A stretch of DNA of 64,000 bases from Spirochaetaceae bacterium (GTDB lineage Bacteria; Spirochaetota; Spirochaetia; DSM-2461): assembly GCA_051531975.1 (NCBI GenBank), contig JAOPTT010000009.1, forward strand, positions 352,001 through 416,000, read 5' to 3'. A model generated the notes under the pieces. That model saw only the letters and a program-made list of their open reading frames with translations. It was not told the origin of the DNA and did no database searches. Shown here in pieces: positions 4,094 through 29,547 of the stretch (within the stretch, counting starts at the first letter, position 1; the number at the start of each line of letters is the position of its first letter). The position numbers and the translations under genes are program-made.

Positions 4094-4158
4094 GGTGTGG
4101 TTAGTTATAGTATGTTATCATAATAACTAATATGGTATACTTTTTAAGTGAGGGAATC

Positions 4159-5076
4159 ATGAAAGGTAAAATAATGCTTATCGATCCTATTAAGGATCTA
4201 AATATAATTAAAGGCTTAGGTTCTGAAATTAGAATAAAAATTCTTAATGAACTAAGACATGGAGAACAGAATATAAATGACCTAGCATCATTATTAGATC
4301 TACCACAATCAACAGTGGCAACCAATATTATCACTCTTGAAAAGGTCGGTCTTGTATCCTCTGAAATAAAAAAAGCAACAAAAGGAAATCAAAAAGTTTG
4401 TAAAAATAACTTTGATGAATATATTATCTCTTTTCAAGATGAAAAGAGTGTTGATAACGAGTCCATTGTTGTTGATATGCCAGTGGGTTTATTTATAGAA
4501 TATGATATATTAGCACCGTGTGGTATGTGTACATCACGAAAAATTGTAGGTTTTTTGGATACACCGGAATCATTTCTTGAACCAGAAAGAATTAGTGCTG
4601 GTCTTTTATGGTTTGAAAAAGGCTTTGTAAAATATCAATTCCCTAACAATTCAATAAATAAAAAAAAGAAAGTTAAAAAACTAGAAGTTATGGTAGAACT
4701 CTCATCAGAAATTCCTGGTACTAACGATAAATGGCTATCTGACATAACCCTTAATATAAATGAAAAAGAAGTAGGGACATGGACAAGTCCTGGAGATTTT
4801 GGAGACAAAAGAGGTAAATACACTCCAGAGTGGTGGAAACTAGAAGGATCACAATATGGCCTTTTAAAAACATGGACAATATCAGAAGAAGGCTCATTTG
4901 TTGATGGGAAGGCTATTTCAAACTTAACAATTGACGATTTAGAATTAGATCTGCATCACTCTATAAAAGTGAAATTCGAAGTAAAAGAAGATGCCGAGAA
5001 TGTTGGAGGTATTAATATCTTTGGAAAAGGTTTTGGTAATTATAACAATGATATTAAACTAATTTTATCATTTTAG
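4159..5076 (+). CDS. ArsR-family winged-HTH transcriptional regulator with C-terminal effector domain
   Basis: GLGSEIRIKILNEL...NINDLASLLDLPQSTVATNIITLEKVGLV HTH; C-terminal WTSPGDFGDKRG and WWKLEGSQYG; ATG 4159 follows GAGGGA. Confidence 0.85.
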   Translation: MKGKIMLIDPIKDLNIIKGLGSEIRIKILNELRHGEQNINDLASLLDLPQSTVATNIITLEKVGLVSSEIKKATKGNQKVCKNNFDEYIISFQDEKSVDNESIVVDMPVGLFIEYDILAPCGMCTSRKIVGFLDTPESFLEPERISAGLLWFEKGFVKYQFPNNSINKKKKVKKLEVMVELSSEIPGTNDKWLSDITLNINEKEVGTWTSPGDFGDKRGKYTPEWWKLEGSQYGLLKTWTISEEGSFVDGKAISNLTIDDLELDLHHSIKVKFEVKEDAENVGGINIFGKGFGNYNNDIKLILSF

Positions 5077-5085
5077 GAGACGGAT

Positions 5086-6420
5086 TTGAACTTAATACAC
5101 ATATATAAAGACTTTGCAGACTCTACTAAATATCTTTTTGTATGTAACAACTTATATGCAAATATGTTAACAAATTTTAAAGATTTTATTTCAGACAGAT
5201 CTATCTTCATAATTAATGATGAAAATACTAAGGTTGCTGCAGGTAATGAATTTATAGAGTTTTGTAAAAAAAACAGTATAAAAGTAAACTCAGAATATAC
5301 TTTCAAAAATATCCCTGAACTTGATGCTTCATATAAAAATGTCGAAATTTTAAAGGAATCCTTATCTAAAACAGATTCCATACCAATAGCAATTGGTAGT
5401 GGAACAATAAATGATTTAGTAAAACGTGCATCATTTGAATTGAATAGAAAATATGGAATTATAGCTACTGCGGCCTCAGTTGACGGGTATGCCTCAGATG
5501 GTGCAGCTATTTTATATAACGGTTTAAAGCAGACTATGCCATGTCCAGCTCCAGAATTTATAGCTGCAGATCCAAAAGTTTTAATAGATGCTCCTATAGA
5601 ATCTAGCTCTTCTGGTTATGCAGATCTTTTAGCTAAGAACCCTGCAGGAGCCGATTGGATTCTAGCAGATATAGTAGGTCTTGATAAAATAAATAGATCA
5701 GCATGGAATCTGATTCAGAAAGATCTGCTAAAGTGGACGACAAACCCAGAGAGGTTAGCTCAAAAAGATGAAGTCATTATTTCAGACCTTATGACAGGAT
5801 TAACCGTTTCTGGTTTTGCAATGCAATTAATGAAAAGATCTAGACCAGTCTCAGGAGCAGAGCATCTTATGTCCCATGTATGGGAGATGGAAAATTTAAT
5901 GTTTAATAACAAACATGTTTCCCACGGTTTTAAAGTTGCTATTGGCTCACTTTCGAGCGTTGCTTTAATGGAAACTATCTTAAATATAAATATATATGAT
6001 TTTGATATAGATAGTGTTATAAAAAACTGGCCTACTTGGGATGTTAGAAAACAAGAGATAATTGATGATTTTTCAGATTTAAATGATATTGAAAATCTAC
6101 TCACTATTAACAAAGAAAAGTATATAAAAAAGGACCAACTATATAAGAGACTTCTGGATATAGTAAATAACTGGGAACATATAAAGTTTGAAGTTAATAA
6201 ACATCTACTACCGTATAAAGAGTTAAAATATAGATTGTTTAAAGCTGGTTGCCCAACTTTACCACAAGATATTGGGTTAACAAAAAGTCACATATTAAGA
6301 ACTTATAAAAAAGCAGGTATGTTAAGAAATAGGTATACGATATTAGACTTTGTTTATGAAATGGGTTTAATGGATAACTGTTTAGAATCTATTTCAAAGT
6401 CAGATATCTATCTAAACTAA
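5086..6420 (+). CDS. egsA: sn-glycerol-1-phosphate dehydrogenase (EgsA/AraM family)
   Basis: AIGSGTINDLVK, TAASVDGYAS, SRPVSGAEHLMSHVWEM, HGFKVAIG motifs; TTG start after AGGAG. Confidence 0.85.
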   Translation: MNLIHIYKDFADSTKYLFVCNNLYANMLTNFKDFISDRSIFIINDENTKVAAGNEFIEFCKKNSIKVNSEYTFKNIPELDASYKNVEILKESLSKTDSIPIAIGSGTINDLVKRASFELNRKYGIIATAASVDGYASDGAAILYNGLKQTMPCPAPEFIAADPKVLIDAPIESSSSGYADLLAKNPAGADWILADIVGLDKINRSAWNLIQKDLLKWTTNPERLAQKDEVIISDLMTGLTVSGFAMQLMKRSRPVSGAEHLMSHVWEMENLMFNNKHVSHGFKVAIGSLSSVALMETILNINIYDFDIDSVIKNWPTWDVRKQEIIDDFSDLNDIENLLTINKEKYIKKDQLYKRLLDIVNNWEHIKFEVNKHLLPYKELKYRLFKAGCPTLPQDIGLTKSHILRTYKKAGMLRNRYTILDFVYEMGLMDNCLESISKSDIYLN

Positions 6421-8240
6421 TTAGTATTACAAGGTATTAGGATTTTAAAACGACAACCTCCCTCTGGCCTATTACTAGCATAAATTTCACCACTGTATTT
6501 TTTAATAATTCCATAAATTACAGATAGACCAAGTCCCATATTGTGTTCATTTTTTTTCTTTGTTGAGAAGAAAGGTAAAAATATATCCTTTGAATACTTT
6601 TCATCTATACCTGTTCCACTATCGTCTATAATTATACATGCATTATTATCCTCTATATCTGTGTGTATATTTATAGTTCCCCCATTTGGCATTGCTTCAA
6701 AACTATTTTTCATTAAATTAAGAAAGACCTGTTTCATCTCATTTCGGCTACTATGAATAAAAAGCTCATCTACAGCTTTATTAAATATTATTTTAATTTT
6801 TTTATGTTTTGCATTAAACCTAATTAAATTAATCAGACTCACAATAAGATCATTAAGATCATAATATTCTAGGGATGAATTGTTGTTATCTGAAAATGAG
6901 ATCAGATTACTCACAATAACTTTAATATCGTGTAATTCCTCTTCTATTTCAGAAATAATTTCCCGGTGTTCTTTGTTTTTTGTACCCATGTTCAGATAAT
7001 TCAGATGGTTATATATTATTTCTAGGGGGTTATTAATTTCATGAGCTACACCAGCTGCTAATAACCCAACAGAAGCTAATTTTTCAGATAAGTTAATCTG
7101 TTCTCTCAATTTTTCTTGTTCAGAAATATCTTCAAATATAATTATATTTCCAATTAAAAATGCACCATCGTATATAGGGAAGGTCTTAAAGTTTATTATC
7201 TTCATCTCTTCTAATAGAGTAAAAGGAATATTATAACCAGAGGACTCTTTTTTACCTATAAATGCATTGTGTAAATCATTTAAAAGGGTTGTGTTTTTTG
7301 AATCTAATAATACTTCTAAATTCTTCCCTCTTAAGTTTTGTCCGCTAATATTAAAAAACTTTTTTGCTGTTTGATTTATTAGTTTTATATTATTTGCATC
7401 ATCTGTAACTATTAGATTTGTTGGAAGTTGTTGTAATATAGCTTCATTATATTTTAGTAGTTGATAAAACTCTTTACTGGTATTTGTTAACTCTTCATCA
7501 CTATTTAACTGAGAATGGCATAATTTAATCAAATTTAATCGATCTATATTATTAACCGAGTCTGTAATAAAAATTTGACCACTTCTTAATATAGAAAAAG
7601 TATGGGCAAAGTTATAGATATCATCTATTTTATGGGATAGACAAAGTATAGACATGTTATCTTTGATTTCATTTTTTAAAAGAGAGGTGATTTTTTTTAA
7701 ATCTGTACCGGATAATTTCTCAAGAGACTCATCCAAAATTAGTAATTTTGGTCTCCTAATTAGTGCTCTAATAATATTTATCACTATTTTTTCTGATAAA
7801 TATAGGTCTTTATACAGTCTGGTTGGATCTAAATCTATCCCATACTCTAAAAGAATCTTTTTCGATTCACTTAACATCCCGCTTTTATTAAGTTTAATGT
7901 TGTTCATAAAATTACATGGAGTAAAAAGATTTTCTGCAATTGTAAAGTTATCTATTAAGAAAATGTCCTGATGAACAGTCTGAATACCTAAAGATTGAGC
8001 CTTGGAAATTGATAAAGCATTTAACTTATTCCCAAAAAATATCATTTCACCACTGTTTACAGGTGAATTCCCAGATAAAATCTCCCCTATATATGTTTTC
8101 CCTGAATCGTGGTCTCCAACTATTGCATGTATTTCTCTAGGATATAGGTCTAGGGATAGGTTTTTTATAACATTGTGACTATCCACTATAAGTTCTATAT
8201 TGTCCAACTGTATAATTGGCTTTAATTTATGATATTCCAT
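6417..8240 (-). CDS. Fusion protein: sugar-ABC ATPase-like domain + PAS-like domain + histidine kinase
   Basis: N-terminal GDHDSGKT (Walker A), TVHQD (Q-loop), LLILDES (Walker B), LSHK (H-loop); PAS-like AILQQLPTNLIVTD...LINQTAKKFF; H-box GVAHEINNPL, N-box LNLMKNSFEAM, DDSGTGI, FLPFFSTK, GLGLS. No transmembrane helix seen. Confidence 0.9.
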   Translation of the reverse strand: MEYHKLKPIIQLDNIELIVDSHNVIKNLSLDLYPREIHAIVGDHDSGKTYIGEILSGNSPVNSGEMIFFGNKLNALSISKAQSLGIQTVHQDIFLIDNFTIAENLFTPCNFMNNIKLNKSGMLSESKKILLEYGIDLDPTRLYKDLYLSEKIVINIIRALIRRPKLLILDESLEKLSGTDLKKITSLLKNEIKDNMSILCLSHKIDDIYNFAHTFSILRSGQIFITDSVNNIDRLNLIKLCHSQLNSDEELTNTSKEFYQLLKYNEAILQQLPTNLIVTDDANNIKLINQTAKKFFNISGQNLRGKNLEVLLDSKNTTLLNDLHNAFIGKKESSGYNIPFTLLEEMKIINFKTFPIYDGAFLIGNIIIFEDISEQEKLREQINLSEKLASVGLLAAGVAHEINNPLEIIYNHLNYLNMGTKNKEHREIISEIEEELHDIKVIVSNLISFSDNNNSSLEYYDLNDLIVSLINLIRFNAKHKKIKIIFNKAVDELFIHSSRNEMKQVFLNLMKNSFEAMPNGGTINIHTDIEDNNACIIIDDSGTGIDEKYSKDIFLPFFSTKKKNEHNMGLGLSVIYGIIKKYSGEIYASNRPEGGCRFKILIPCNTN

Positions 8241-9555
8241 ATTTTTCCAACTTATTATACAAGGTTTTTCTACTAATTTTTAATATTTCAGAAGTTCGTT
8301 TTTTATTATTACCAGTCTTTTGTAAAGTTTTAATTATCAGATTTTTTTCGTTATCTTTTATAATATCAAAGCTGTTTGTAAATTCTTTTTTTCCTAGAAA
8401 AGAGGGTGGTAGTTCATTTAGATCAATAATAGAGTTTGTGCAAATTGCGGCAGCATAGTTGACTATATTTTTTAGTTCCCTAATATTCCCTCTCCAATCA
8501 TTTTCCATCATTGATGATAAAAAGTCATATGTGTATTTTAGCTCTGTAGTACCATTATCTTTTTTAAATTGCTCTAGAAAATGATCTACTAATAGTGGAA
8601 TATCATCTTTTCTCTCCCTTAAGGGAGGTATATATAAAGTTGCAGTGGATAATCTATAATATAGATCTTCTCTAAACTGATTTTTCTTAATTAATTCTTT
8701 TAAGTCCTTATTTGTTGAGGCTATAAATCTAACGTCAATTATTGTCGTTGTTTCAGAACCGATTGGGCGTATTTCACTATTTTGAAGAGTTCTTAATATT
8801 TTAGCCTGGGTTTGTAGAGACATATCTCCTATTTCGTCTAATAACAGGGTTCCACCATTTGCTTTCTCAAAGACCCCTTTATATTTGTTATGAGCCCCAG
8901 TATAAGCACCTTTTTCATGACCAAAAAGTTCATTGTCTAATAAGTTTTCTGGGAACGCTGAACAATTTATTTTAATGATTTTTTGTCCACTTCGTAAGGA
9001 GTTATTATGAATGTATTCGGCTAACCCTTCCTTGCCTGTTCCACTTTCCCCTTGTATTAAAATTGGGAAATCCGTAGTAGATAACTTTTTTGCTTTTAAT
9101 AAAATATCTGTAATTAATTGATTTTCACTTATAATTTGAGGAGACAGGACTTTTACTTTCTGCTTAAGGTTACTATTCTCTATATTAAGTAACCTCATCT
9201 TAGAAGCATTTTCTACAATAATTAATAATTTATTAAACTCTAATGGCTTTTGGATAAAGTCAAATGCACCTAACTTAATAGCTTCCACTGCTATCTCTAT
9301 AGTTCCAAAACCGGTAATCATAATTACTGGAAGATGAAAATCATAATCTTTTATCTGTTTAAGAAGTTCAATACCATCTTCATCACCTAGTGCAACATCT
9401 AATAAAACAACATCGGGATGACTATTTTTTAATTCAATTAGACTTTCTTCACTATTTGTTTTATATGAAACACTGTACCCTATGTGTTCAAAATTTCTAC
9501 AAAGACTTTTACATAGTTTGATATTATCATCTATTATTAAAATTGACTTTTTCAA
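8227..9555 (-). CDS. NtrC-family sigma54-dependent response regulator
   Basis: Receiver (IIDD, VVLLD, FIQKP), AAA+ GESGTGKE, ELFGHEKGAYTGA, LLLDEIG, WRGNIRELKN, Fis-type HTH; likely TTG start at 9555 after AAGGT (ORF track extends to 9630). Confidence 0.93.
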   Translation of the reverse strand: MKKSILIIDDNIKLCKSLCRNFEHIGYSVSYKTNSEESLIELKNSHPDVVLLDVALGDEDGIELLKQIKDYDFHLPVIMITGFGTIEIAVEAIKLGAFDFIQKPLEFNKLLIIVENASKMRLLNIENSNLKQKVKVLSPQIISENQLITDILLKAKKLSTTDFPILIQGESGTGKEGLAEYIHNNSLRSGQKIIKINCSAFPENLLDNELFGHEKGAYTGAHNKYKGVFEKANGGTLLLDEIGDMSLQTQAKILRTLQNSEIRPIGSETTTIIDVRFIASTNKDLKELIKKNQFREDLYYRLSTATLYIPPLRERKDDIPLLVDHFLEQFKKDNGTTELKYTYDFLSSMMENDWRGNIRELKNIVNYAAAICTNSIIDLNELPPSFLGKKEFTNSFDIIKDNEKNLIIKTLQKTGNNKKRTSEILKISRKTLYNKLEKYGIS

Positions 9556-9558
9556 AGT

Positions 9559-9609
9559 TGTTACCTTTTTACACATAAGGACTGTGTACCTATGTGTAAA
9601 ATTTATACA
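9559..9609. promoter_or_regulatory. Two TGT-N9-ACA candidate upstream activating sequences
   Basis: TGTTACCTTTTTACA (9559-9573) and TGTAAAATTTATACA (9595-9609), about 95-145 bp upstream of the -24/-12 element. Confidence 0.5.
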
Positions 9610-9703
9610 CCCACCCAGAGTATCTGTCAAATAAAATATAGTAAAAACGTTAAAACCGGTATATATTGGTGTTTCAGGTATCTTTTAGTATTATTTACAA
9701 TTT

Positions 9704-9719
9704 TGGCACAGCAATTGCA
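9704..9719 (+). promoter_or_regulatory. sigma54 (-24/-12) promoter of the furanose ABC operon
   Basis: TGGCAC-AGCAA-TTGCA with GG-N10-GC spacing, 36 nt before the ATG, next to a bEBP gene. Confidence 0.88.
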
Positions 9720-9755
9720 TTTAGGTAGACAAACAATATTTCAAAGGGGAATAAA

Positions 9756-10721
9756 ATGAACAAAATGTTAAAAACATTAGCTACAGTGTTAATGGTGGTT
9801 ATGTGTCTACCAGGTCTTTTTGCTAGCAGTCAAAAAGAAGATGATGGGAAAATTGTAGTAGGTTTCTCACAAATTGGTTCCGAAAGTGCATGGAGAGTTG
9901 CAAATACTGAATCTATCACAAGTGAAGCGAAGAATAGACCAAACATTGATCTAAAGTTTTCTGATGCTCAACAGAAACAAGAAAATCAAATTAAAGCTTT
10001 ACGAACTTTTATTGCACAGGGTGTAGATGTAATAGCATTCTCTCCAGTTGTTGAGACAGGTTTTGAGTCTGTTTTAATAGAAGCAAAAGAAGCTGGGATT
10101 CCTGTAATTTTAACAGATAGAGCTGTTGATGTTAAAGATGATTCTCTGTGGGTTTCTTTTATGGGTTCTGACTTTGTTGAAGAAGGAAGAAAAGCTGCAA
10201 GATGGTTAATAGAAGAAGGTCATACAGATGTTAATATTGTTGAACTTCAAGGTACTGTTGGATCTGCTCCAGCAATAGACAGAAAAAACGGTTTTGAAGA
10301 AGTTATTAAAAGTGAACCTGGAATGAAGATTATTAAAACTCAAAGTGGTAGCTTTACAAGAACTGGTGGAAAAGAGGTTATGGAAGCTTTCTTAAAAGCT
10401 GAAGGTGATAATATCCAAGTTCTATATGCACACAATGACGATATGGCGATTGGTGCAATTCAAGCAATCGAAGAGTATGGTTTAATACCTGGCACTGACA
10501 TTATAATAATCTCTATTGATGCTGTAAGAGGCGCATTTGAAGCTATGGTTGATGGTAAATTAAACTGCACTGTAGAATGTAGTCCACTACTTGGACCTCA
10601 GTTATTTGATGCTGTTGAGGCGTTAATGAGAGGTGAAGAGATTCCTAAAAGAATTGTTACAGAGGAAAGTATTTATCCACAATCTGTTGCTGCAAGCACA
10701 ATTGATAGCAGACAGTACTAA
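9756..10721 (+). CDS. ytfQ: Monosaccharide (furanose) ABC substrate-binding protein, YtfQ-like
   Basis: VGFSQIGSESAWRVANTESI, FSDAQQKQENQIKA, AHNDDMAIGAIQAI motifs. Confidence 0.85.
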   Translation: MNKMLKTLATVLMVVMCLPGLFASSQKEDDGKIVVGFSQIGSESAWRVANTESITSEAKNRPNIDLKFSDAQQKQENQIKALRTFIAQGVDVIAFSPVVETGFESVLIEAKEAGIPVILTDRAVDVKDDSLWVSFMGSDFVEEGRKAARWLIEEGHTDVNIVELQGTVGSAPAIDRKNGFEEVIKSEPGMKIIKTQSGSFTRTGGKEVMEAFLKAEGDNIQVLYAHNDDMAIGAIQAIEEYGLIPGTDIIIISIDAVRGAFEAMVDGKLNCTVECSPLLGPQLFDAVEALMRGEEIPKRIVTEESIYPQSVAASTIDSRQY

Positions 10722-10735
10722 TAAAGGAGATATAA

Positions 10736-12268
10736 ATGCCTGATTCTAAAGCTGAACAACACCAGCTACTGGAAATCAGGGGTTTGAGTAAGAGCTTTCC
10801 AGGTGTGAAAGCTCTTCAATCTGTTGATTTCACCCTAAGGTCTGGAGAAATCCACGCCTTAATGGGTGAAAATGGAGCAGGTAAATCAACCCTGATAAAA
10901 GTACTGACTGGTTTACATAAAAGAGATAGTGGAACAATATTGATGAATGGACAACCATTTGAGTCTTCATCACCACTGGACGCATCACTAAAAGGAATAA
11001 GCACTGTATATCAGGAAGTCAACTTAGTACCAAACCTCTCTGTAGCAGAAAATATATATATTGGAAGACAGCCTACTAAAAGAGGTTTAGTTGATTGGAA
11101 AACAATGAATAACAAAGCCCAGGAAGCCTTAAAAAAACTGGATCTAGATATTGATGTTACAGAGCAGTTATCTTCCTACTCCATGGCAATTCAGCAGATG
11201 ATTGCGATTGCAAGATCTCTTGATATAGACGCTAAGATTTTAATACTGGATGAGCCAACATCAAGTCTAGATCAGGCTGAATGTAAGCAGTTATTCCTTA
11301 TTATGAATAAATTGAAAGTAAATGGCATGGGAATTATTTTCATAACTCATTTTCTTGATCAAGTTTATGAGAACTCAGACTATATTACAGTTTTAAAAAA
11401 TGGACAATTTGTAGGAGACTACCCTATAGAAGAATTACCTAAGATAAAACTTATTTCTAAAATGCTTGGTAAAGAAATTGAGGATATAGGTGATTTATCG
11501 ATCAAGCGTAAAACAACTTATAAAATCGATAGTAAAGAACTTATGAATCTAGAAAATATTGAGCGTAAAGGCGTTTTACATAAACTGAGTATGGATATTA
11601 AAGATGGAGAAATACTTGGACTTGCAGGACTATTAGGTTCTGGTCGAACTGAACTTGCAAAAATACTGTTTGGTATTGATAAACATACAAGTGGATATAT
11701 CAATATCAACGGAAACAAAGTACATCTAAACTCACCAAAAGCTGCAATATCAAACTCAATAGCTTTTTGTCCTGAAGATAGAAAAACAGAAGGGATAATA
11801 CCGGATCTGAGTGTTAGAGAAAATATTGTTCTCGCTCTCCAGGCAAGATATGGAGTTTTTAAAAGTTTATCAAAATATGATCAAGACGGAATTTGCAATA
11901 AATATGTTAAGCTTCTTAAAATTAAAGTATCTGGTTTAGAACAGAAAGCGGGGACTCTAAGCGGGGGGAATCAACAAAAATTAATTTTGGCCAGATGGTT
12001 AGCAATGGATCCAAAACTATTAATCCTGGATGAACCAACTAGGGGCATCGATGTAGGAGCAAAAGCTGAGATTGAAAAAATTATACATAAAATGAGTACT
12101 GAAAATAGATCTGTTCTGTTTATCTCTTCGGAACTAGAAGAGATTACAAGAATATGTTCAAGAGCAGTAATATTGAGAGATAGAAAAAAAATTGGAGAGT
12201 TATATGGTGATGATTTGTCAGCATCAAATATAATGAACCATATAGCTAAAGGAGTTCATCAGATATGA
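10736..12268 (+). CDS. ytfR: Sugar ABC ATPase with two NBDs (CUT2, YtfR-like)
   Basis: GENGAGKST, ILILDEPT, LSGGNQQK, DEPTRGIDVGAK. Confidence 0.88.
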   Translation: MPDSKAEQHQLLEIRGLSKSFPGVKALQSVDFTLRSGEIHALMGENGAGKSTLIKVLTGLHKRDSGTILMNGQPFESSSPLDASLKGISTVYQEVNLVPNLSVAENIYIGRQPTKRGLVDWKTMNNKAQEALKKLDLDIDVTEQLSSYSMAIQQMIAIARSLDIDAKILILDEPTSSLDQAECKQLFLIMNKLKVNGMGIIFITHFLDQVYENSDYITVLKNGQFVGDYPIEELPKIKLISKMLGKEIEDIGDLSIKRKTTYKIDSKELMNLENIERKGVLHKLSMDIKDGEILGLAGLLGSGRTELAKILFGIDKHTSGYININGNKVHLNSPKAAISNSIAFCPEDRKTEGIIPDLSVRENIVLALQARYGVFKSLSKYDQDGICNKYVKLLKIKVSGLEQKAGTLSGGNQQKLILARWLAMDPKLLILDEPTRGIDVGAKAEIEKIIHKMSTENRSVLFISSELEEITRICSRAVILRDRKKIGELYGDDLSASNIMNHIAKGVHQI

Positions 12269-13323
12269 AAAAAGGATTAAAAATTAAATTTTTAAAGAAC
12301 TTAAAGCCGGATTCCCGATTAGTATATCCACTCATGGCGCTTCTAGCTATCCTTCTATTTAATCTTATTTTTACAGAAGGTTTTTTTCATATAGAAATAA
12401 AAAATGGACACCTTTTTGGATCATTGATTGATATTTTGAATCGAGGGGCTCCAGTAATTTTATTAACTATTGGAATGACATTAGTTTATGCAACAGGAGG
12501 TGTAGATCTATCTGTAGGTGCCGTTATGGCAATCTCTGGGGCTCTTGCTGCTCAGTTGATCAGACCTGACTATGTTAAAGGAATACTTGAATACGGGAGT
12601 CAAACTTCAATAGTGATTGTATTATTAATTCCTATTTTATTATCCATATTATTAGGGTTATGGAATGGTTTCCTTGTAGCATATATAGGAGTACAACCAA
12701 TTATTGCAACCCTTATTTTAATGACAGCAGGCCGTGGAATTGCTCAGTTAATTACCCGTGGGCAAACTATAGTGTTTGAGCATGAACCATTTCAGTTTGT
12801 TGGTAGTGGATTTCTTTTTGGAGTTCCATTTCCAGTTATTATTGTAATAATAATTGCAGTCTTAACATGGTTAATAACTAGAAAAACTTCTTTAGGACTG
12901 TTTATAGAAGCAACTGGATCCAATTCACGTGCCAGTCACTATATGGGATTAAGCGTTAAACTAATAAAATCAATAACTTATGCCTTTTCAGGTTTATGTG
13001 CAGGACTAGCAGGAATAATTGTATGTTCTGATATTAGAGCTGCAGATGCAAATAATGCAGGACTCTTTTTAGAACTGGATGCAATAGCTTCAGTAATAAT
13101 TGGTGGAACTATAAATGGTGGAAGATTTTCAATATTAGGATCAATAATTGGAGCACTGATTATACAAGCTCTATCAACAACTATTATTACAAGAGGTATT
13201 CCTCCACAAGTTGTTCTGGTTTTCAAAGCTTTTATTATTATTATTGTAGCTTTGATACAATCTGAAAAATTACGAGAGAAGATTAAACAACATTTTCCTA
13301 AAGGAGAAAAAAATGAAGCTTAA
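12265..13323 (+). CDS. ytfT: Sugar ABC permease (YtfT-like)
   Basis: GGVDLSVGAVMAI, ADANNAGLFLELDAIA; hydrophobic. Confidence 0.85.
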   Translation: MKKGLKIKFLKNLKPDSRLVYPLMALLAILLFNLIFTEGFFHIEIKNGHLFGSLIDILNRGAPVILLTIGMTLVYATGGVDLSVGAVMAISGALAAQLIRPDYVKGILEYGSQTSIVIVLLIPILLSILLGLWNGFLVAYIGVQPIIATLILMTAGRGIAQLITRGQTIVFEHEPFQFVGSGFLFGVPFPVIIVIIIAVLTWLITRKTSLGLFIEATGSNSRASHYMGLSVKLIKSITYAFSGLCAGLAGIIVCSDIRAADANNAGLFLELDAIASVIIGGTINGGRFSILGSIIGALIIQALSTTIITRGIPPQVVLVFKAFIIIIVALIQSEKLREKIKQHFPKGEKNEA

Positions 13324-14293
13324 ACTCAACCAAAAGAACATACCTCTTTTTACAACTTTTCTAGTTTTTTTAATTATTTATGCTTCTGGATCAATATTAT
13401 ACAGTGGGTTCTTTTCATTAAGGGTTTTTATTAATTTATTTATAGACAACGCTTTTGTAGGTATAATTGCTGTGGGTATGACTTTTGTTATAATATCCGG
13501 TGGAATAGATCTCTCTGTAGGTTCCTTGGTTGCGTTAACAGGAGTATTAAGTGCAAATTTACTGGCCAATACATCATTAAGCCCTATTTTTGTTATATTA
13601 ATATGCCTCTCTTTTGGTGCTTTATTTGGCTTTACAATGGGATATTTAATACATTATTTAGAGCTACCACCATTTTTAGTAACTCTAGTTGGGATGTTTT
13701 TGGCTAGAGGGTTGTCCTTTGTTATCAGTCTGGACTCTGTTCCAATTCGTGATGAACTATTTCTTAAATTATCACGTATGGCAATCCCACTAGGGAAAGG
13801 TGTCAAAATTCCTTTTATTGCAATTGTCTTTATTTTTATAGTTATACTAGGGGTATATATACTGCATAACACCAAATTTGGACGGAACGTATATGCTATT
13901 GGTGGTAATGAAAAATCAGCTCTTTTAATGGGTTTGCCAATTGGTAAAACTAAAATAATGATTTATACCTTAAACAGTACATTTTGTGCATTAGGTGGAT
14001 TGGTATATTCTATATATACATTGGCTGGTTATCCATTAGCAGGAACAGGTCTTGAACTGGATGTTATTGCTGCAGTCGTTATAGGTGGAACATTATTAAC
14101 TGGTGGAATGGGATTTGTAGAAGGAACATTAATCGGTATTTTAATACTAGGACTTATACAGACAATTATTATTTTTCAGGGTAATTTAAGTTCTTGGTGG
14201 ACCAAAATATTTATAGGAGTTCTTATATCAATGTTTATTCTACTTCAAAGATATTTATCAACTAGAACAATAAAAAAAAAGTCAGATAATTAA
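13313..14293 (+). CDS. yjfF: Sugar ABC permease (YjfF-like)
   Basis: NLFIDNAF, GGIDLSVGS, LSSWWTKI motifs. Confidence 0.85.
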   Translation: MKLKLNQKNIPLFTTFLVFLIIYASGSILYSGFFSLRVFINLFIDNAFVGIIAVGMTFVIISGGIDLSVGSLVALTGVLSANLLANTSLSPIFVILICLSFGALFGFTMGYLIHYLELPPFLVTLVGMFLARGLSFVISLDSVPIRDELFLKLSRMAIPLGKGVKIPFIAIVFIFIVILGVYILHNTKFGRNVYAIGGNEKSALLMGLPIGKTKIMIYTLNSTFCALGGLVYSIYTLAGYPLAGTGLELDVIAAVVIGGTLLTGGMGFVEGTLIGILILGLIQTIIIFQGNLSSWWTKIFIGVLISMFILLQRYLSTRTIKKKSDN

Positions 14294-14379: not shown

Positions 14380-16125
14380 TTAAAGTTTACCAGTAACCCC
14401 AAGTTTCTCTGATTCTATTAGATCTTTTGTATACTGTTGTAATGTCCCTATTAAACCTTCTAAAGGAAGATTTTTATTCTCTTTACCACATCGGGTTTTA
14501 AACTCAACCTCATTTGATTCTAAAGTTTTATCACCTACAATAACTCTTAAAGGAATACCAAAAAGATCGGCGTCTTTAAACTTAGCACCGGCTCTCTCTT
14601 TTTTTCTGTCATCAAATATAACTTCGATTCCAGCTGCTAACATATCTTTATATAACTCTTCAGCTTTAGGTGATGCTTTACTTAAGTTAATTAGATGCAC
14701 ATGGTATGGAGAAACTGACATAGGCCATATAATTCCATTATCGTCGTGGTGTTCCTCTACAATACTTGCTAAAAGTCTACCAATACCAATACCGTAAGAA
14801 CCCATAATTACTGGTTTCTCTTTACCGTCAACATCGTTAAAAACAGCCCCAATAGCCTCAGTATATTTTGTTCCAAGTTTAAAGATATTACCAACTTCTA
14901 CACCTCTAGAGAAGTTTAGTTCAGCTTTACATACAGAACACTTAGCTCCTTGTTCAGCATTTGCAATATCAGTTACAACATTTGCTTTAAAGTCTCTATT
15001 TATTCTAACTCCGGTTAAGTGATAATTTAATCTATTTGCCCCAGCAACGAAGTTTCTATTTTTCTGAATAGTTTCATCAGCAATAATTACGGCATTCTCA
15101 ATTCCTACAGCGGAACCAAATCCTGCAATACAACCATGTGCTTCAATTTCTTCTACTGTAGCGGCTCTTAATTCTTTTGCTTTAATCCCATTTTGAACTT
15201 TAGTTTCGTTTACCTGTAAGTCACCTCTAATCTGAGCAATTACAAATTTTTCAACTTCCTCATGTCCATCTTGGAATGTTCCCATATAAAATACAGCTTT
15301 AACAGTGTCTTTTGCTTCAACATTTAAGAAGTGTGAAACATCCTCAATAGTTTTTGTATCTGGAGTTAAAACTTCTTTTAACTTTTCCTCTTCCTGTTTA
15401 GGAAAAAACTCTTTAGTAAAAGTTGCTACTTCGCTATTTGCAGTATAACCACAATCACATGTAACAAGGCTGTCCTCTCCCATAGAAGTTAAGTACATAA
15501 ACTCATGGGCCATTTTACCACCCATAACACCCATGTCTGAATTAACAGTAATAACTGGAAGCCCACATCTATTAAACATATTAAAATATGCGTGAAAATG
15601 CTCTTCATACTGCTCATCTAATTGTTTCCAGTTTGCAGCAGCAGAATAACTGTCTTTCATTGTAAATTCTCTAACTCTAATTAGACCGGCTCTAGGTCTA
15701 GCATCATCTCTCCATTTTGTCTGAAGTTGATAGATTGTTTGTGGTAATTGTTTATATGATATTATTTCACTTTTCATTAACGTTGCTGCAACCTCTTCGT
15801 GGGTCATGGCTAATACCATATCCCGGCCCCAACGGTCATTAAACTTCGTTAACTCTTTGTCGATTTCGTAGTATCTGTTTGTCTCTTTCCATATATCAGC
15901 AGGATTTATTACAGGCATGGTTATCTCTTGTCCACCAATTTTGTTCATCTCTTCTCTGATAATGTTTTCTATTTTGTTTATTGTACGTTTCGCTATAGGT
16001 AAATAACTATAAATTCCTGCTGCAAGTTGTCTAATAAAACCTGCTCTAACTAAGTACTCAGCACTTGCTGCTTCATCTTTTCCTGTAGGTCGTAAAGTCC
16101 TAGAAAATAACTGACTTTGTCTCAT
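14380..16125 (-). CDS. proS: Proline--tRNA ligase (bacterial type with editing domain)
   Basis: MRQSQLF start (ATG 16125 after GAGGT), RAGFIRQLAAGIY, RPRAGLIRVREFTMKDSYS, EVGNIFKLG, MGSYGIGIGR. Confidence 0.96.
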   Translation of the reverse strand: MRQSQLFSRTLRPTGKDEAASAEYLVRAGFIRQLAAGIYSYLPIAKRTINKIENIIREEMNKIGGQEITMPVINPADIWKETNRYYEIDKELTKFNDRWGRDMVLAMTHEEVAATLMKSEIISYKQLPQTIYQLQTKWRDDARPRAGLIRVREFTMKDSYSAAANWKQLDEQYEEHFHAYFNMFNRCGLPVITVNSDMGVMGGKMAHEFMYLTSMGEDSLVTCDCGYTANSEVATFTKEFFPKQEEEKLKEVLTPDTKTIEDVSHFLNVEAKDTVKAVFYMGTFQDGHEEVEKFVIAQIRGDLQVNETKVQNGIKAKELRAATVEEIEAHGCIAGFGSAVGIENAVIIADETIQKNRNFVAGANRLNYHLTGVRINRDFKANVVTDIANAEQGAKCSVCKAELNFSRGVEVGNIFKLGTKYTEAIGAVFNDVDGKEKPVIMGSYGIGIGRLLASIVEEHHDDNGIIWPMSVSPYHVHLINLSKASPKAEELYKDMLAAGIEVIFDDRKKERAGAKFKDADLFGIPLRVIVGDKTLESNEVEFKTRCGKENKNLPLEGLIGTLQQYTKDLIESEKLGVTGKL

Positions 16126-16241
16126 AATAATTATTACCTCTCTTAATCTGTAGCTACACACTTCCATAAGTTTAAAGTAGCTATCATTTAGTCCTATTAA
16201 AATAGCACTATAGAGAGGTATCCGTCAAATTTAATCGGGTA

Positions 16242-17474
16242 TTATATATCCTTTTTTACAAAAATAAGAGATGAGATGCAGTTCTTTTCAACTTTCTCTA
16301 TTGACCACTGTCCTTCATCTGTCTCAATTGTTAAACCAGCAGTTGGAAAGTTACCTATTCGCTCAGTTAAATATCCATTAATTGTTTGTGTTCCCATGTC
16401 ATGGGGTATCTCTAAATCTATTATATCTTCTATGTCGTAGAATGATGAATCTCCGGCAACTTTCCAAGTTTTATTATTAAGTTTTATTATTGGAGCTTCT
16501 TCAAACGTTTCATTTTCATCGTACATTTCACCAAATATTTCTTCTAATATATCTTCTCTGGTTACAATACCATCTAGTCCACCATATTCATCTAATACAA
16601 TAGCTATATTTAACTTCTCAATCTTAAATTTTATAAATAGTTCATTAACCTTATTGCTTCCTGGAACAAAAATAGGTTTATGAGAAAAATCCTTAATAGG
16701 GCGTTTTTTATCCTCTTCGCTTAGCTGAACAATATCCTTAAAAAGTATGATCCCTATAATGTTTTCATCGCTATGTTCAAAGATTGGAACTCTAGATTTT
16801 CCTTCAATTAATAATTCCTGAAAAATATCGTTAACACTGAGACTACCATCCAATCGTATAACATCTGTTCTATGGGTCATTATGCCGTGTATAGGAGTAT
16901 CGTTTATTCTAAATACATCTTTAACCATCTGGGATTCATAATCTTCAACTACACCCATTTTTGTACCAGCTTCAACTAAATTAATTAAACTCTCTTCAGT
17001 TATCTGCTGTTTAGGTTTTTTTACAAAAATCTTAGTTAACTGTGTACTGATAGAGGATATAAAAAAGATAAGAGGTTTAAATAATACAGATAAAACCAAG
17101 ATAAAGTTTATGGTTCTATAACAGATAGATTCACTTTTATCTAAAGCGATCTGTTTTGGTGTAACTTCTCCAAATATCAGGATAAACAATATTAGAGCAC
17201 CTGAGCCAAAACCAATATATGCATTACCAAAAATTCTAATGGTAATCATTGTCGTTAAAGTTGTAGCTGCAATATTTACAATGTTATTACCAATTAATAT
17301 TGTAGTCAGAAGTACCTGAGGGTTATTAATTAGCTTTTCAATCTTTAAGCCACGTTTATGATTTCTTTTAATTAGATTTTGAATCGATGATATAGATAAG
17401 GATGTAAATGCTGTCTCTGTACCTGAAAAAAAACTGGAAAGGATAAGTAGTATACCAAGTGCTATTAGATCCAC
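16242..17474 (-). CDS. CNNM/CBS/CorC-domain 'hemolysin family' membrane protein
   Basis: SSFFSGTETAF, ILIGNNIVN, FGEVTPK, IMTHRTD, DEYGGLDGIVTREDILEEIFGE; GTG start. Confidence 0.9.
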   Translation of the reverse strand: MDLIALGILLILSSFFSGTETAFTSLSISSIQNLIKRNHKRGLKIEKLINNPQVLLTTILIGNNIVNIAATTLTTMITIRIFGNAYIGFGSGALILFILIFGEVTPKQIALDKSESICYRTINFILVLSVLFKPLIFFISSISTQLTKIFVKKPKQQITEESLINLVEAGTKMGVVEDYESQMVKDVFRINDTPIHGIMTHRTDVIRLDGSLSVNDIFQELLIEGKSRVPIFEHSDENIIGIILFKDIVQLSEEDKKRPIKDFSHKPIFVPGSNKVNELFIKFKIEKLNIAIVLDEYGGLDGIVTREDILEEIFGEMYDENETFEEAPIIKLNNKTWKVAGDSSFYDIEDIIDLEIPHDMGTQTINGYLTERIGNFPTAGLTIETDEGQWSIEKVEKNCISSLIFVKKDI

Positions 17475-17545
17475 GTGGCTCTCTCTTTAATTATTAATCC
17501 CATCGAAAGGGGGTCGGGGTCTTCTGTTGTCACTAATTCGTTCAT
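17465..17545 (-). CDS. Putative 26-aa leader ORF MNELVTTEDPDPLSMGLIIKERATWI
   Basis: Manual translation from ATG at 17545; the ORF overlaps the CNNM GTG start in another frame; locally GC-rich; no clear RBS. Confidence 0.35.
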   Translation of the reverse strand: MNELVTTEDPDPLSMGLIIKERATWI

Positions 17546-17645
17546 AAAAATTATTATAGTGTATCTTTTAGGTAGATTCAATATGTTATTTTAATGATAT
17601 CTTTTAGACAAAAATAGCATATCATATTACTTATAGGAGAAACTC

Positions 17646-19178
17646 TTGAAAAACCACAAATTTATAATACCTAAAGTCTCTAGTATGAAATTAAACAATT
17701 CGTTATTTGTATTACAAGAAACAAGTCAAATCTCTGTTTCATGTACACAACTAATTCCTAAAGCTGAGTTATTAGCACTGTATTTAAAGCCTAGTACAGG
17801 TTATAAATTACCTATTTCTGTTGGTAAAAAAGGTGACATTCAACTTATTTTAGAAGGTGATAATAATGAAAATTACATTTTAGAGGTAGGAGAGGGGTTA
17901 ATAGCAATAAAATCTGGATCTTTAAAAGGGATTATTAGAGGTATTATGACTCTAAGACAACTTTTACCAAAACAGATCTTTTCAGATAAAGTTGTAACGG
18001 GTATGACCTGGGAAATTACCGGTTGTCTTATAAAGGATGAACCTAAATTTAAGTGGCGAGGAATGCACTTAGATGTTGGTAGGCATTTTATGGACAAAGA
18101 GGATGTTTGTAAGTTTATTGATACAATTGCTCTATATAAGTTTAATCGATTTCATTTCCATTTAACTGAGGATCAGGGGTGGAGGATAGAGATAAAAAAA
18201 TATCCAAAACTAACAGAGATCGGTTCTACTAGATCATCATCATTAATTGGCTCATTGGAAGATAAACCAAAAAGATATGACGACACTCCACATTTTGGAT
18301 ATTATACCCACGAAGATATAAAAGAGATTGTTAGTTATGCACTATTAAGAGAGATAGAGATTGTCCCAGAAATTGATATGCCTGGACATATGCAGGCGGC
18401 AATAGCGGCTTACCCAGAGTTAGGGTGTACCGATATGACTTTAGAGCCTCTTTGCCATTGGGGAATCTCACAACATATATTAAATGTAGAAGAATCTACT
18501 ATTAACTTCATGAAAGATGTATTAGACGAAGTTATTGAGCTATTCCCTGGGGATTATATTCATATAGGTGGTGATGAAGCTCCAAAGTATGAATGGCAGG
18601 AACAGCGCCGGATTCAAGACCGAATGATAGAATTAGGTCTCAAAAGTGAAGATGAATTACAAAGCTGGTTTATATCCCAGGTTTCTAAGCATATTCAGAG
18701 TAGAGGAAAAAAAGTTATAGGTTGGGATGAGATTTTAGAAGGTGGTTTAGCTGAAGGTGTAGCAGTCATGAGTTGGAGAGGTGAAACTGGTGGAATTGAA
18801 GCTGCTAATTTAGGACATGAAGTAGTTATGACACCAGGGAGTCATGTCTATTTTGATCATTATCAGGATGACCCCAAAACAGAACCATTGGCAATGGGAG
18901 GCTTTACAGACTTAGAGAAAGTATATAATTATAACCCAATTCCAAAAGAACTTTCCAAAGATAAACATCACCTTGTTTTAGGTTCCCAGGGGCAGTTATG
19001 GACAGAGTATATGAAGGATTATAAACAGGTTGAATATATGGCATTCCCAAGAGCGTGTGTATTAGCTGAAGTTTTATGGTCCGATTCAAATAAAGATTAT
19101 TTAGCATTCAAAGAGGTATTAACTGCCCACCAAGATATTCTTAATAATTTAAATGTAGGATACTGCAAGCTTAAATAA
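17646..19178 (+). CDS. GH20 beta-N-acetylhexosaminidase
   Basis: WRGMHLDVGRHF, HFHLTEDQGWR, PEIDMPGH, catalytic HIGGDE, LWTEY; TTG after AGGAG; no signal peptide. Confidence 0.93.
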   Translation: MKNHKFIIPKVSSMKLNNSLFVLQETSQISVSCTQLIPKAELLALYLKPSTGYKLPISVGKKGDIQLILEGDNNENYILEVGEGLIAIKSGSLKGIIRGIMTLRQLLPKQIFSDKVVTGMTWEITGCLIKDEPKFKWRGMHLDVGRHFMDKEDVCKFIDTIALYKFNRFHFHLTEDQGWRIEIKKYPKLTEIGSTRSSSLIGSLEDKPKRYDDTPHFGYYTHEDIKEIVSYALLREIEIVPEIDMPGHMQAAIAAYPELGCTDMTLEPLCHWGISQHILNVEESTINFMKDVLDEVIELFPGDYIHIGGDEAPKYEWQEQRRIQDRMIELGLKSEDELQSWFISQVSKHIQSRGKKVIGWDEILEGGLAEGVAVMSWRGETGGIEAANLGHEVVMTPGSHVYFDHYQDDPKTEPLAMGGFTDLEKVYNYNPIPKELSKDKHHLVLGSQGQLWTEYMKDYKQVEYMAFPRACVLAEVLWSDSNKDYLAFKEVLTAHQDILNNLNVGYCKLK

Positions 19179-24188: not shown

Positions 24189-24944
24189 ATGGCAGGGAAT
24201 AGGTCAGTTAAAAGAGGAATTCAAATACTAGATTTAGTCTCAAAAAGTAAACAAGGTATAAGTTTAAAAGAGATTGTCGCTAGATTTGAGATTCCAAAAA
24301 CTAGTGGGTTTGATATTGTTAAAGAGCTAGTGGACAGTGGTATGATTGTTGAAACTAGAGGTGAAATAAACACATATACTGTTGGATTAAAAGCGTTCCA
24401 GATTGGAAATGAATATTTAAGAGAGACTGATTTAATAACAACTGCAAAACCTTACGTTATATCAATGGCAGAAACAATAAATAAAACTGCATTTATTGCT
24501 GTAATGAGCGAGGGTTTTGTTACTTATTTATATAAATATGAACCACCAACATCGATTATTACAACTTCCAATATTGGAACAAAAAACTCTATTCATTGTA
24601 CATCTTTAGGTAAAGCTATGTTATCTGGAATGTCTGATGCAGAAGTTAAAAGTCACTTGAAATATATTACTTATACAAAGATGACAGATAAAACAATTAA
24701 GAATGAAAAAGAACTACTAGAGAGCCTTAAAGTCTCTAGGGAATTAGGTTATGCAGTTGATGATAGGGAGATTGAAGATCATACCCTATGTATCGGTTCT
24801 GCAATATATGACCATACAGGTAGTGTTGTTGCAGGACTATCCGTGTCTGGATTTTACAATAAAGATCGTGACGTAGCTTTCGAGGGAAATCAGATAAAAA
24901 ATGCAGCTTTAGAAATTAGTAAAAAATTAGGATATAAGGGGTAG
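24189..24944 (+). CDS. IclR-family transcriptional regulator
   Basis: N-terminal HTH (SVKRGIQILDLV...IPKTS), HCTSLGKAML, GYAVDDREIE. Confidence 0.92.
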   Translation: MAGNRSVKRGIQILDLVSKSKQGISLKEIVARFEIPKTSGFDIVKELVDSGMIVETRGEINTYTVGLKAFQIGNEYLRETDLITTAKPYVISMAETINKTAFIAVMSEGFVTYLYKYEPPTSIITTSNIGTKNSIHCTSLGKAMLSGMSDAEVKSHLKYITYTKMTDKTIKNEKELLESLKVSRELGYAVDDREIEDHTLCIGSAIYDHTGSVVAGLSVSGFYNKDRDVAFEGNQIKNAALEISKKLGYKG

Positions 24945-24947
24945 AGA

Positions 24948-26771: not shown

Positions 26772-26788
26772 GCCCTATAGGAAATACT

Positions 26789-28459: not shown

Positions 28460-28472
28460 GGAGATTTTAAAT

Positions 28473-29543
28473 ATGGAAAATAAGTTTGATAAAATAATTG
28501 AACTTGCAGATGCTACAACCAAGAGACTTAAATATAATAAGATTCCTTGGATGTGGGGAGAGGCTCTGTTAATGCACTCTATGGGTCTGTTAAACGAAAC
28601 TTTAGGTGAGGACAGATATACAGACTATATTCAAAACTACGCTGACTACCACATAAACAAAGGGTGCAGAATAGATCAGTCTGATACGTTAGCACCAACT
28701 CTGGCTACTTACTATTTACAAAAAAAGTACCCAGAAATGGATTATAAAAAGACTACAGATCGAGGTCTGGATTACATTAAAAACTCAGAGAAGATTATTC
28801 ATAATATGCCTAACCACCTAGGCCACTCTCTAGAGGGTAAATTATATCCTAAAAGTATCTGGGTTGACTCAATAATGATGTACGGAGTTTTTACAAGTCT
28901 GTATGCAAAAGAGCAAAATGACGAGTGGTTAATGGACTTTGCTAAAACTCAGCCAGCCTTTTTTAGAAAATACCTCCAGGACTCTGATGATAAACTATTT
29001 GTTCATTGTTATTGGACTAAAAGCGAAAAACAGTACCCAAATAAGCTTTATTGGGGCCGAGGTAACGGTTGGGTAATTGGTGCAATGCCAATGTTAATTG
29101 GTAATTTACCAGATGGACCGGAAAAAGAAGAGTGTAAAGAGATTGTAAGAGAAGTAAGTGAGGCTATTTTACAATATCAGAGACCCGATGGTTATTTTGA
29201 GTCTGTATTAAATAGGCCTGGAACTACCTTAAAAGAGAGTAGCGCAACTTCATTAATAGCTGCTGGATGGTTAAGAGCAGTTAGGGAAGGTTACTTAGAT
29301 AAAAAATTCCAAGAGCCAGCTTTAAAAGCATTTAATGCTGTAGTGGACGACTTAATAATTAAAGATGGAATGTTAAGTATGCAGCACATAAGTGCACCAA
29401 CAATTGCAATGCAATTAATCCCTGAGTTAGGGTATAAATTACAATATAAGATGCAAAAATCAGAGGACTGGTCCTACGGGTTAGCCGCACTATTTTTTGC
29501 AGGTATTGAGTATAAGAAGACAATAGAATTAAAGGAAGAGTAA
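28473..29543 (+). CDS. GH105 (GH88/105) unsaturated uronyl hydrolase
   Basis: IWVDSIMM, WGRGNGW, ESSATSL motifs; no signal peptide. Confidence 0.85.
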   Translation: MENKFDKIIELADATTKRLKYNKIPWMWGEALLMHSMGLLNETLGEDRYTDYIQNYADYHINKGCRIDQSDTLAPTLATYYLQKKYPEMDYKKTTDRGLDYIKNSEKIIHNMPNHLGHSLEGKLYPKSIWVDSIMMYGVFTSLYAKEQNDEWLMDFAKTQPAFFRKYLQDSDDKLFVHCYWTKSEKQYPNKLYWGRGNGWVIGAMPMLIGNLPDGPEKEECKEIVREVSEAILQYQRPDGYFESVLNRPGTTLKESSATSLIAAGWLRAVREGYLDKKFQEPALKAFNAVVDDLIIKDGMLSMQHISAPTIAMQLIPELGYKLQYKMQKSEDWSYGLAALFFAGIEYKKTIELKEE

Positions 29544-29547
29544 CATT

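Follow-up and report, generated by a model that had tools for sequence, protein, structure and literature searches.

An ABC-type nucleotide-binding domain fused to a soluble histidine kinase, encoded with a sigma-54 activator beside an ABC importer in a Spirochaetaceae bacterium

A stretch of 64,000 nucleotides from a Spirochaetaceae bacterium (contig JAOPTT010000009.1, positions 352,001 to 416,000 of the forward strand; here called the window, with coordinates counted from its first letter) encodes a soluble sensor histidine kinase with an ATP-binding cassette (ABC) nucleotide-binding domain (NBD) at its N-terminus. This fusion represents a real and conserved protein family, apparently unstudied, and its gene is accompanied by genes for a sigma-54 activator and for an ABC importer. 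The conserved anatomy makes it very likely that the kinase signals to the activator and the activator to the adjacent importer operon. The best available explanation for the NBD, held at about even chances, is that it reads the transporter. The kinase gene and its parts are as follows.

6417..8240, minus strand: soluble sensor histidine kinase of 607 amino acids, assigned from Pfam domains, AlphaFold model and hydropathy
7542..8240, minus strand: kinase NBD, residues 1-233, a block in the AlphaFold model
Residues 234-264, minus strand: kinase linker, of low confidence in the AlphaFold model
7125..7448, minus strand: kinase PAS domain, residues 265-372, a block in the AlphaFold model
6420..7124, minus strand: dimerisation and histidine phosphotransfer (DHp) plus catalytic (CA) domain, residues 373-607, a block in the AlphaFold model with a long DHp helix pair

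Pfam places ABC_tran at residues 26-172, PAS at 266-342, HisKA at 392-452 (36.9 bits) and HATPase_c at 500-604 (67.2 bits), each above its cut-off, and the phospho-acceptor H400 is invariant in 92 of 92 representatives of the family. The Kyte-Doolittle maximum over 19-residue windows is 1.26, compared with 2.8 and 3.1 for two permeases. With this maximum, the protein lacks any segment of the hydrophobicity expected for a membrane helix; it is therefore read as soluble and, judged by its hydropathy, is a kinase without a membrane or periplasmic sensor. The domains and the hydropathy thus bear out the first-pass annotation of this DNA, which had described a soluble kinase whose input regions are an NBD and a PAS-like domain. 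The AlphaFold model, built on a 27-sequence alignment, has a mean predicted local distance difference test score of 76, with values of about 80-90 in the NBD and PAS blocks. In Foldseek searches, the N-terminal third matches the ABC NBDs of LptB and of the Thermotoga maritima ABC ATPase 1ji0 (TM-score 0.84-0.88 on the target), and the C-terminal two thirds match the PAS-linked kinases 4gcz, ThkA and ZraS; among the matches listed, no chain is annotated with both NBD and kinase parts. The best NCBIfam match of the PAS-DHp-CA part is AtoS (NF008468), at 237 bits against a cut-off of 646, with only residues 257-606 aligned.

The junction between NBD and PAS is bridged by one contig of sequencing run X1, which spans 6702-8683 with 0 differences and whose right end also reaches across the stretch where the kinase and activator genes overlap; X1 probably represents the source sample, and its support is therefore not independent. 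The G+C content in this region of the window is about 30%, and one RNA run of the same sample contains nothing matching this stretch. All 120 protein matches listed, the query included, cover at least 95% of the query and contain PF00005, PF00512 and PF02518; their sources are Spirochaetales, Treponema, KSB3 (Moduliflexus, Vecturithrix), Desulfomarina and a Spartobacteria metagenome-assembled genome. An assembly join, or absence of the fusion from other genomes, had been named as grounds for discarding the first interpretation, and neither was borne out. Together with the open frame and the conserved motifs, the shared architecture and the bridging contig rule out, with next to no residual doubt, both an artificial join during assembly and gene decay as explanations of the fusion.

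A profile from the H-loop to the end of the PAS domain (residues 195-385) retrieved 215 representatives at E<=1e-30 from 1.84 billion 50%-identity representatives. Among the best 150, at least 91 are full-length, comprising 84 of 143 new ones with 570-660 amino acids and 7 others with 611-642, and in those full-length representatives that were inspected the profiled stretch lies near residues 190-390. The remainder of the best 150 are multi-PAS proteins matching only the PAS part, and shorter proteins. The family occurs in several phyla and in up to three copies per genome; in a sample of the phylum, at least 14 of 401 genomes contain a match, the genome of the window (G000) included, when the top 3 candidates per genome are scored. 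Records at NCBI and JGI label its members only as 'ATP-binding cassette domain-containing protein' or 'histidine kinase'. In line with the earlier statement that no characterised example was known, no description of an NBD-kinase fusion was found in the full-text literature, subscription journals lying outside its coverage, and term look-ups in 10.64898/2026.02.27.708494 and PMC6978683 returned no mention of it.

Broken relatives occur as well. The kinase gene of locus L014 (2646-4453) is split by a frameshift and the copy at G281:C3 holds a TGA codon. At L113 (9050-10498 and 12319-13735), the kinase is shortened by an in-frame TGA and the adjacent ATPase gene is split in two. The broken genes of L014 and L113 could be products of decay or assembly errors. 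Separately, ESM Atlas clusters of about 826-852 amino acids combine ABC_tran with HisKA, one of them with GAF_2, and are commonest in Actinomycetota; with a score of 0.83 they are a lead only, possibly to a second NBD-kinase family with GAF in place of PAS.

The NBD combines conserved ATP-binding residues with altered hydrolysis motifs. Its Walker A motif (G42...G47-K48-T49) is kept in 91, 90, 89 and 91 of the 92 representatives at the four positions. The Q-loop Q91, the Walker B D170 and the catalytic glutamate E171 are present in the window kinase and found in 77, 90 and 85 of the 92, respectively; the glutamate is absent from L106, L111 and L112, whose kinases group with the window kinase in the tree. 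The H-loop H203 is likewise present, and a histidine occupies this position in 70 of the 92. The ABC signature has the consensus LSGGQ and the D-loop the consensus SALD. At the signature position, the window kinase reads L-S-E-K (residues 148-151) and the family L-S-[D/E]-[R/K], with the Gly-Gly pair present in none of the 92 representatives, and the D-loop is replaced by L-E-K-L-S. Two further features that 86-100% of the first halves of the adjacent transporter ATPases keep, Pro-Thr following Walker B and the Asp of the D-loop, have been lost from the kinase NBDs. These motifs suggest a domain that has retained ATP binding and whose composite NBD-NBD sites would be non-canonical.

The best NCBIfam matches of the NBD are the N-terminal halves of YtfR, XylG, LsrA, GguA, AraG, RbsA, AlsA and MglA, all far below their cut-offs. 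To the YtfR profile it scores 116 bits against a cut-off of 850 and aligns with positions 7-245 of 492, as a single NBD and not two in a chain of about 500 amino acids as in CUT2 ATPases. A quick, unrooted IQ-TREE analysis covered 67 NBDs, of which 25 come from kinases and 3 from single ATPases; the adjacent ATPases contribute 21 first and 18 second halves. All 25 kinase NBDs fall in one clade (Shimodaira-Hasegawa approximate likelihood ratio support 98), apart from both halves of the adjacent ATPases, the C-terminal NBDs of which form a clade of their own. The kinase clade consists of two subclades, one of 15 members with the window kinase and one of 10 with its two paralogues from the same genome. 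A single clade is in keeping with one ancient fusion and later duplication rather than with repeated capture. As far as motifs and phylogeny can tell, the NBD is a constrained input domain of single origin.

Upstream of the kinase gene lie the activator gene and, in divergent orientation, the importer operon with its control region.

8227..9576, minus strand (longest open reading frame to TTG at 9630): NtrC/AtoC-type sigma-54 activator, assigned from Pfam, NCBIfam and the GAYTGA loop
9567..9609, no strand assigned: candidate activator-binding sites (upstream activator sequences), a 35-bp palindrome and an overlapping dyad, 95-137 bp upstream of the -24 element
9704..9719, plus strand: predicted sigma-54 (-24/-12) promoter, TGGCAC-N5-TTGCA, 37 nt before the start codon of the ytfQ-like gene
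9756..10721, plus strand: periplasmic sugar-binding protein, YtfQ-like (Peripla_BP_4; NCBIfam YtfQ, 383 bits against a cut-off of 510)
10736..12268, plus strand: tandem-NBD CUT2 ATPase, YtfR-like (two ABC_tran stretches; NCBIfam YtfR, 680 bits against 850)
12265..13323, plus strand: permease, YtfT-like (BPD_transp_2 by Pfam; NCBIfam YtfT, 373 bits against 535)
13313..14293, plus strand: permease YjfF (BPD_transp_2 by Pfam; NCBIfam YjfF, 431 bits against 363)

The activator contains Response_reg, Sigma54_activat (215 bits), AAA_lid_14 and HTH_8, a Fis-type helix-turn-helix (HTH), and its best NCBIfam match is AtoC (396 bits, cut-off 714). Bacterial enhancer-binding proteins have a GAFTGA-type loop as their consensus, and a GAYTGA loop is found at residue 251 of the printed translation. 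ATG 9576 is the likely start codon, since relatives align only from about residue 22-29 of the long open reading frame. The activator gene overlaps the start of the kinase gene by 14 nt, as the overlap with an NtrC-type regulator gene noted in the first pass had implied.

The same annotation had proposed a complete divergent ytfQRT-yjfF operon. This holds in that YtfQ, YtfR, YtfT and YjfF are the best NCBIfam matches of the four genes, and falls short in that only YjfF exceeds its curated cut-off. An N-terminal hydrophobic segment of the YtfQ-like protein is consistent with a signal peptide. According to PMC10191376, relatives of YtfQ include an L-arabinofuranose system.

The promoter claimed as near-consensus turned out to match exactly: TGGCAC-N5-TTGCA at 9704-9719 on the plus strand is the sole match with 0 mismatches in the 64 kb, where about 0.93 matches with at most 1 mismatch are expected per window. 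The sigma-54 promoter consensus is TGGCAC-N5-TTGCW, with GG and GC 10 nt apart. The genome encodes RpoN (Sigma54_DBD at G000:C13, 174 bits), and scans for sigma-70 promoters and terminators gave nothing above shuffled background. The reported palindromes resembling upstream activator sequences are also present, as predicted sites. The 16-nt arms of the 35-bp palindrome (9567-9582 and 9586-9601) are 88% complementary, and the dyad TGTRYA-N5-8-TRYACA at 9593-9609, the sole match in 64 kb, ends 95 bp upstream of the -24 element. Of 21 related promoters, 5 have the same dyad at a distance of 95-121 bp upstream from the -24 element; the resulting enrichment of about 88-fold (5 in 3.8 kb, compared with 5 in 333 kb of background) is partly circular, as the pattern was chosen after the sequences had been inspected.

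The arrangement was compared across 29 modules: the window and its paralogues L081 and L082, 7 modules from 6 loci of species genomes, and 19 loci from 13 other genomes of the same phylum. The species-genome loci derive from a scan with a generic kinase motif, in which 6 of 80 kept loci contain the full-length fusion and the other 74 match from residue 248 or later only. The three modules of the window's genome each lie beside their own transporter. With L116 and L121 truncated by contig ends, 27 modules can be assessed for the activator, and in all 27 its gene sits directly upstream of the kinase gene in the same orientation. For the importer, 28 modules can be assessed (L116 set aside), and 27 of them have an ABC importer of the PF02653-permease type within 10 kb. 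Among these 27 adjacent importers, 26 are CUT2-like, three of their operons (one in L114, two in L121) having a single-NBD ATPase. At L122 (853-5845, G113:C136), the transporter opposite the kinase-activator pair is of the LivKHMGF type and follows an exact sigma-54 motif; it comprises a Peripla_BP_6 binding protein, two PF02653 permeases and two single-NBD ATPases, one of which has a branched-chain C-terminal motif. The family is thus not restricted to CUT2 sugar systems. Co-location with enhancer-binding proteins and CUT2 operons, which the first-pass annotation had proposed to score, holds for the activators and for importers in general, with the correction that another transporter type can take the place of CUT2, as at L122, and that L112, which is taken up below, lacks an importer within 9 kb.

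In 20 of 28 modules, the transporter operon has a GG-N10-GC motif with at most 1 mismatch just before its first gene and directed into it. The motif at L106 lies 940 nt away and is doubtful. The modules without such a promoter (L001, L081, L111, L113, L114 and L118) each have a 2-mismatch candidate with the right gap and orientation, which at L081 is located 50 nt before the binding-protein gene. At L109 (12385-13338), the first gene behind the sigma-54 promoter encodes a shikimate/quinate-dehydrogenase-like protein, and a matching gap exists at about 6512-7552 of L108; this gene suggests that the substrate of the module may be a cyclitol or quinate-like compound and not a sugar. Downstream of the L081 module (15530-18700, G000:C9) follow directly genes for a methyl-accepting chemotaxis protein and an enolase-superfamily (MR_MLE) protein. 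At L082 (8449-9672, G000:C3), a 407-amino-acid open reading frame without a Pfam match at E<=1e-5 lies between the binding-protein and ATPase genes.

The anatomy suggests a two-component system dedicated to one ABC importer, in which the kinase would phosphorylate the NtrC-type activator encoded by the overlapping gene. The activator would bind the dyads about 100 bp upstream and open the sigma-54 promoter of the ytfQRT-yjfF-like operon. On the input side, the NBDs of the kinase dimer may occupy the cytoplasmic face of the cognate permease pair, either in the place of the true ATPase or in alternation with it. When the sugar-loaded binding protein docks on the outside, NBD closure on the inside would change, and the PAS domain would relay this change to the kinase core. 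What the cell reads would thereby be the occupancy of the transporter, not the sugar itself. Docking on the permeases, which the first-pass annotation had proposed for YtfT/YjfF with pairing with YtfR as the alternative, is the most likely form that a reading of the transporter could take, and is put forward tentatively. A fuller version, which is possible and must be considered rather speculative, assumes that the kinase dimer takes the place of the ATPase in some of the permease complexes and makes these into non-transporting receptors, in which the loaded binding protein would close the degenerate, ATP-holding NBDs and switch the kinase on; such a module could be moved between CUT2 and Liv-type importers.

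The argument for docking is indirect. A sensor that is kept across chemically different importers, Liv-type included, most simply reads what these importers share. Their common ground lies in the PF02653 permease scaffold with its ATP cycle and not in a substrate, and the signal is probably one common to different transporters. Comparisons within the window's subclade agree with this picture for both candidate input domains. Among pairs with binding proteins of 17-28% identity, PAS is still 27-54% and the NBD 29-46% identical. The window and L111 have binding proteins that are 69% identical, yet PAS and NBD reach only 30% each, whereas the window and L105 share 50% in PAS at 19% identity of the binding proteins. 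More generally, PAS identity is 50-54% where binding-protein identity is 19%, and 30-33% where it is 55-69%. In the modules compared, neither NBD nor PAS similarity tracks transporter type.

Several observations weigh against docking, and some of them against any reading of the transporter. Co-variation was assessed by Spearman correlation of pairwise identities for 11 complete modules (55 pairs, the sequences not being independent). All three kinase parts track the activator (0.73-0.80; NBD 0.80), whereas NBD identity correlates weakly with that of the permease (0.24), the ATPase (0.27) and the binding protein (0.14), and there is thus no co-variation signal for a specific NBD-transporter interface. 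The transporters of L081 and L001 are sisters, but their kinases belong to different subclades. Together with the correlation to the activator, this indicates that kinase and activator evolve as one unit, which has been combined anew with different transporters. The genome encodes about 20 CUT2 ATPases, and docking among about 20 CUT2 systems would need a specificity determinant, of which none was seen in the comparisons. The kinase NBD is dispensable for transport, given that each adjacent transporter comes with an ATPase of its own. A separate limit is that homology gives no map of the NBD-permease interface: neither the YjfF-like permease (E<=0.001) nor the YtfR-like ATPase (E<=1e-40) has a match among PDB sequences.

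Two further points on the same side concern the PAS domain and L112, and both feed the explanation that the imported sugar, or a first metabolite, is really sensed by the PAS domain, with the NBD as an ATP-dependent dimerisation module, energy-state module or tether. PAS is the most variable kinase domain, with a family-wide median pairwise identity of 22%, compared with 31% for the NBD and 36% for DHp/CA, as a ligand-binding domain would show. L112 (4804-16130, G143:C31) is the sole module without a transporter within 9 kb. Its kinase-activator pair is followed by a LacI-type gene, araB, araD and araA, and the divergent sigma-54 motif of the module is directed at a Big_5/ice-binding-like protein gene; the same genome (G143) contains a 70%-identical ytfQ orthologue (L124), 210 nt from a contig end and behind a repeat. 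This repeat comprises about 2.5 copies of a 43-nt direct repeat just upstream of the orthologue (L124:1-110, at the start of G143:C13). The lack of NBD-transporter co-variation and the resemblance of PAS-DHp-CA to kinases with cofactor- or ligand-binding PAS domains, such as 4gcz, also favour a PAS sensor. However, PAS identity does not follow transporter type within the window's subclade either, and such a sensor leaves unexplained why a transporter-derived NBD with conserved ATP-binding residues is retained in all members and why a PF02653-type importer is adjacent in nearly every module. A PAS sensor is, on balance, rather unlikely.

Two other roles for the NBD are less probable still. It might pair with the ATPase of the transporter, for example in a composite site completed by the signature of the second YtfR NBD, and so sense the amount of ATPase engaged. 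The kinase NBD would suit such a partnership, as it keeps Walker A, Walker B, the glutamate in most representatives and commonly the H-loop histidine, and lacks a functional signature that a partner could supply; the C-terminal NBDs of the adjacent ATPases presumably carry a canonical one. Yet both NBDs of these ATPases reside on one polypeptide and are paired with each other, the NBD-ATPase correlation is the weak one given above, the D-loop residues of the NBD-NBD interface are not conserved in the kinase NBD, and the adjacent ATPase has a single NBD in L114 and the two L121 operons, which together make this pairing improbable. Alternatively, the NBD could be an output, by which a kinase that is controlled by something else competes with the ATPase for permeases and throttles transport. 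This would involve the same anatomy as an NBD that reads the transporter, and the degenerate signature suggests a poorly hydrolysing, blocking domain; against it, Pfam reveals no input domain other than PAS, and the conserved sigma-54 promoter before the transporter argues that the main output is transcription. Throttling by the NBD is the least probable of these roles, with little in the way of likelihood.

Other genes of the window deserve brief mention. The gene at 5086-6420 encodes a 444-amino-acid Fe-ADH_2 protein (best NCBIfam match glycerol-1-phosphate dehydrogenase, 129 bits against 413), and its stop codon overlaps that of the kinase gene; it is preceded by a gene for a 314-amino-acid ArsR-type HTH protein (4132-5076). 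An IclR-regulated cluster at 24189-31975, with an MFS_2 transporter, GH88, KduI and a short-chain dehydrogenase, suggests the use of unsaturated uronates and includes a 607-amino-acid open reading frame without a Pfam match (24948-26771). A second transporter-linked two-component system at 41086-47187 consists of a His_kinase/HAMP kinase and a receiver-AraC regulator (YesM/YesN-like by domains) beside DctP and DctM genes of a tripartite ATP-independent periplasmic (TRAP) transporter. At 47853-60965, a 1693-amino-acid open reading frame without a Pfam match at 1e-8 lies directly upstream of genes for a 1900-amino-acid bacterial alpha-2-macroglobulin and a PBP1C-like transglycosylase/transpeptidase.

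Transporter-coupled sensing is known from few systems, namely Bce, Pho and DctA-DcuS, in which the signal from transporter to kinase is hard to study and contact occurs between separate membrane proteins. BceS is a membrane kinase, and its regulator is OmpR-type and not sigma-54 dependent. Bce-type kinases are intramembrane-sensing, with two membrane helices, and BceB has a large extracellular domain. PMC4513084 describes how, in the Bce modules for antimicrobial-peptide resistance of Firmicutes (BceRS-BceAB), the kinase senses through the ABC transporter and induces it, a principle termed 'flux sensing', and PMC10314905 presents the module as a membrane-protein complex of kinase and transporter. 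In contrast to Bce, the window kinase is soluble and has its own NBD, and the transporter is a binding-protein-dependent importer with PF02653 subunits.

In the PstSCAB-PhoU-PhoR system, PhoU bridges the transporter and the PAS domain of PhoR, according to PMC13577022 and PMC9239213. As in that system, an ABC importer of the window would report on its cytoplasmic side, with the PAS domain of a kinase as the receiving point. Unlike Pho, with its separate PstB, PhoU and membrane-bound PhoR, the NBD is fused directly to PAS and kinase; no search for PhoU was made. If the NBD docks, the fusion would be a hard-wired version of the Pho relay. The NBD aligns with the N-terminal half of the CUT2 ATPases RbsA, AraG, XylG, MglA and YtfR, and in its normal Walker motifs and degenerate signature it is like the first NBD of the adjacent YtfR-like ATPases.

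In combining a PAS kinase with a sigma-54 activator, the window system resembles AtoS-AtoC, NtrB-NtrC and ZraS-ZraR, and its kinase core matches the fold of ZraS. The AtoS, NtrB and ZraS kinases have membrane or other inputs, and to our knowledge none of them contains an NBD. A transporter part fused to a kinase that is paired with a transcriptional activator is shared with CbrA/CrbS, in which, as PMC7096432 and PMC5715377 report, the kinase is fused to an SLC5 transporter domain. The fused part of CbrA/CrbS is the membrane permease of a secondary transporter, whereas that of the window kinase is a soluble ABC ATPase domain. We know of no ABC NBD inside the kinases of the Bce, PstSCAB-PhoU-PhoR or CbrA/CrbS systems.

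The putative reading head of the window kinase is a recognisable soluble ABC domain with a conserved ATP site and altered hydrolysis motifs, which makes the proposal directly testable and worth an experiment. If it is true, bacteria without a sensor of the sugar phosphotransferase type would have a general means of matching importer synthesis to substrate supply, sensors could be built from ABC importers with a portable part, and ABC permeases would serve as a general transmembrane receptor for cytoplasmic kinases. Set beside the Bce, Pho and CbrA/CrbS systems, the kinase-activator-importer module is a new variant of transporter-linked two-component signalling.

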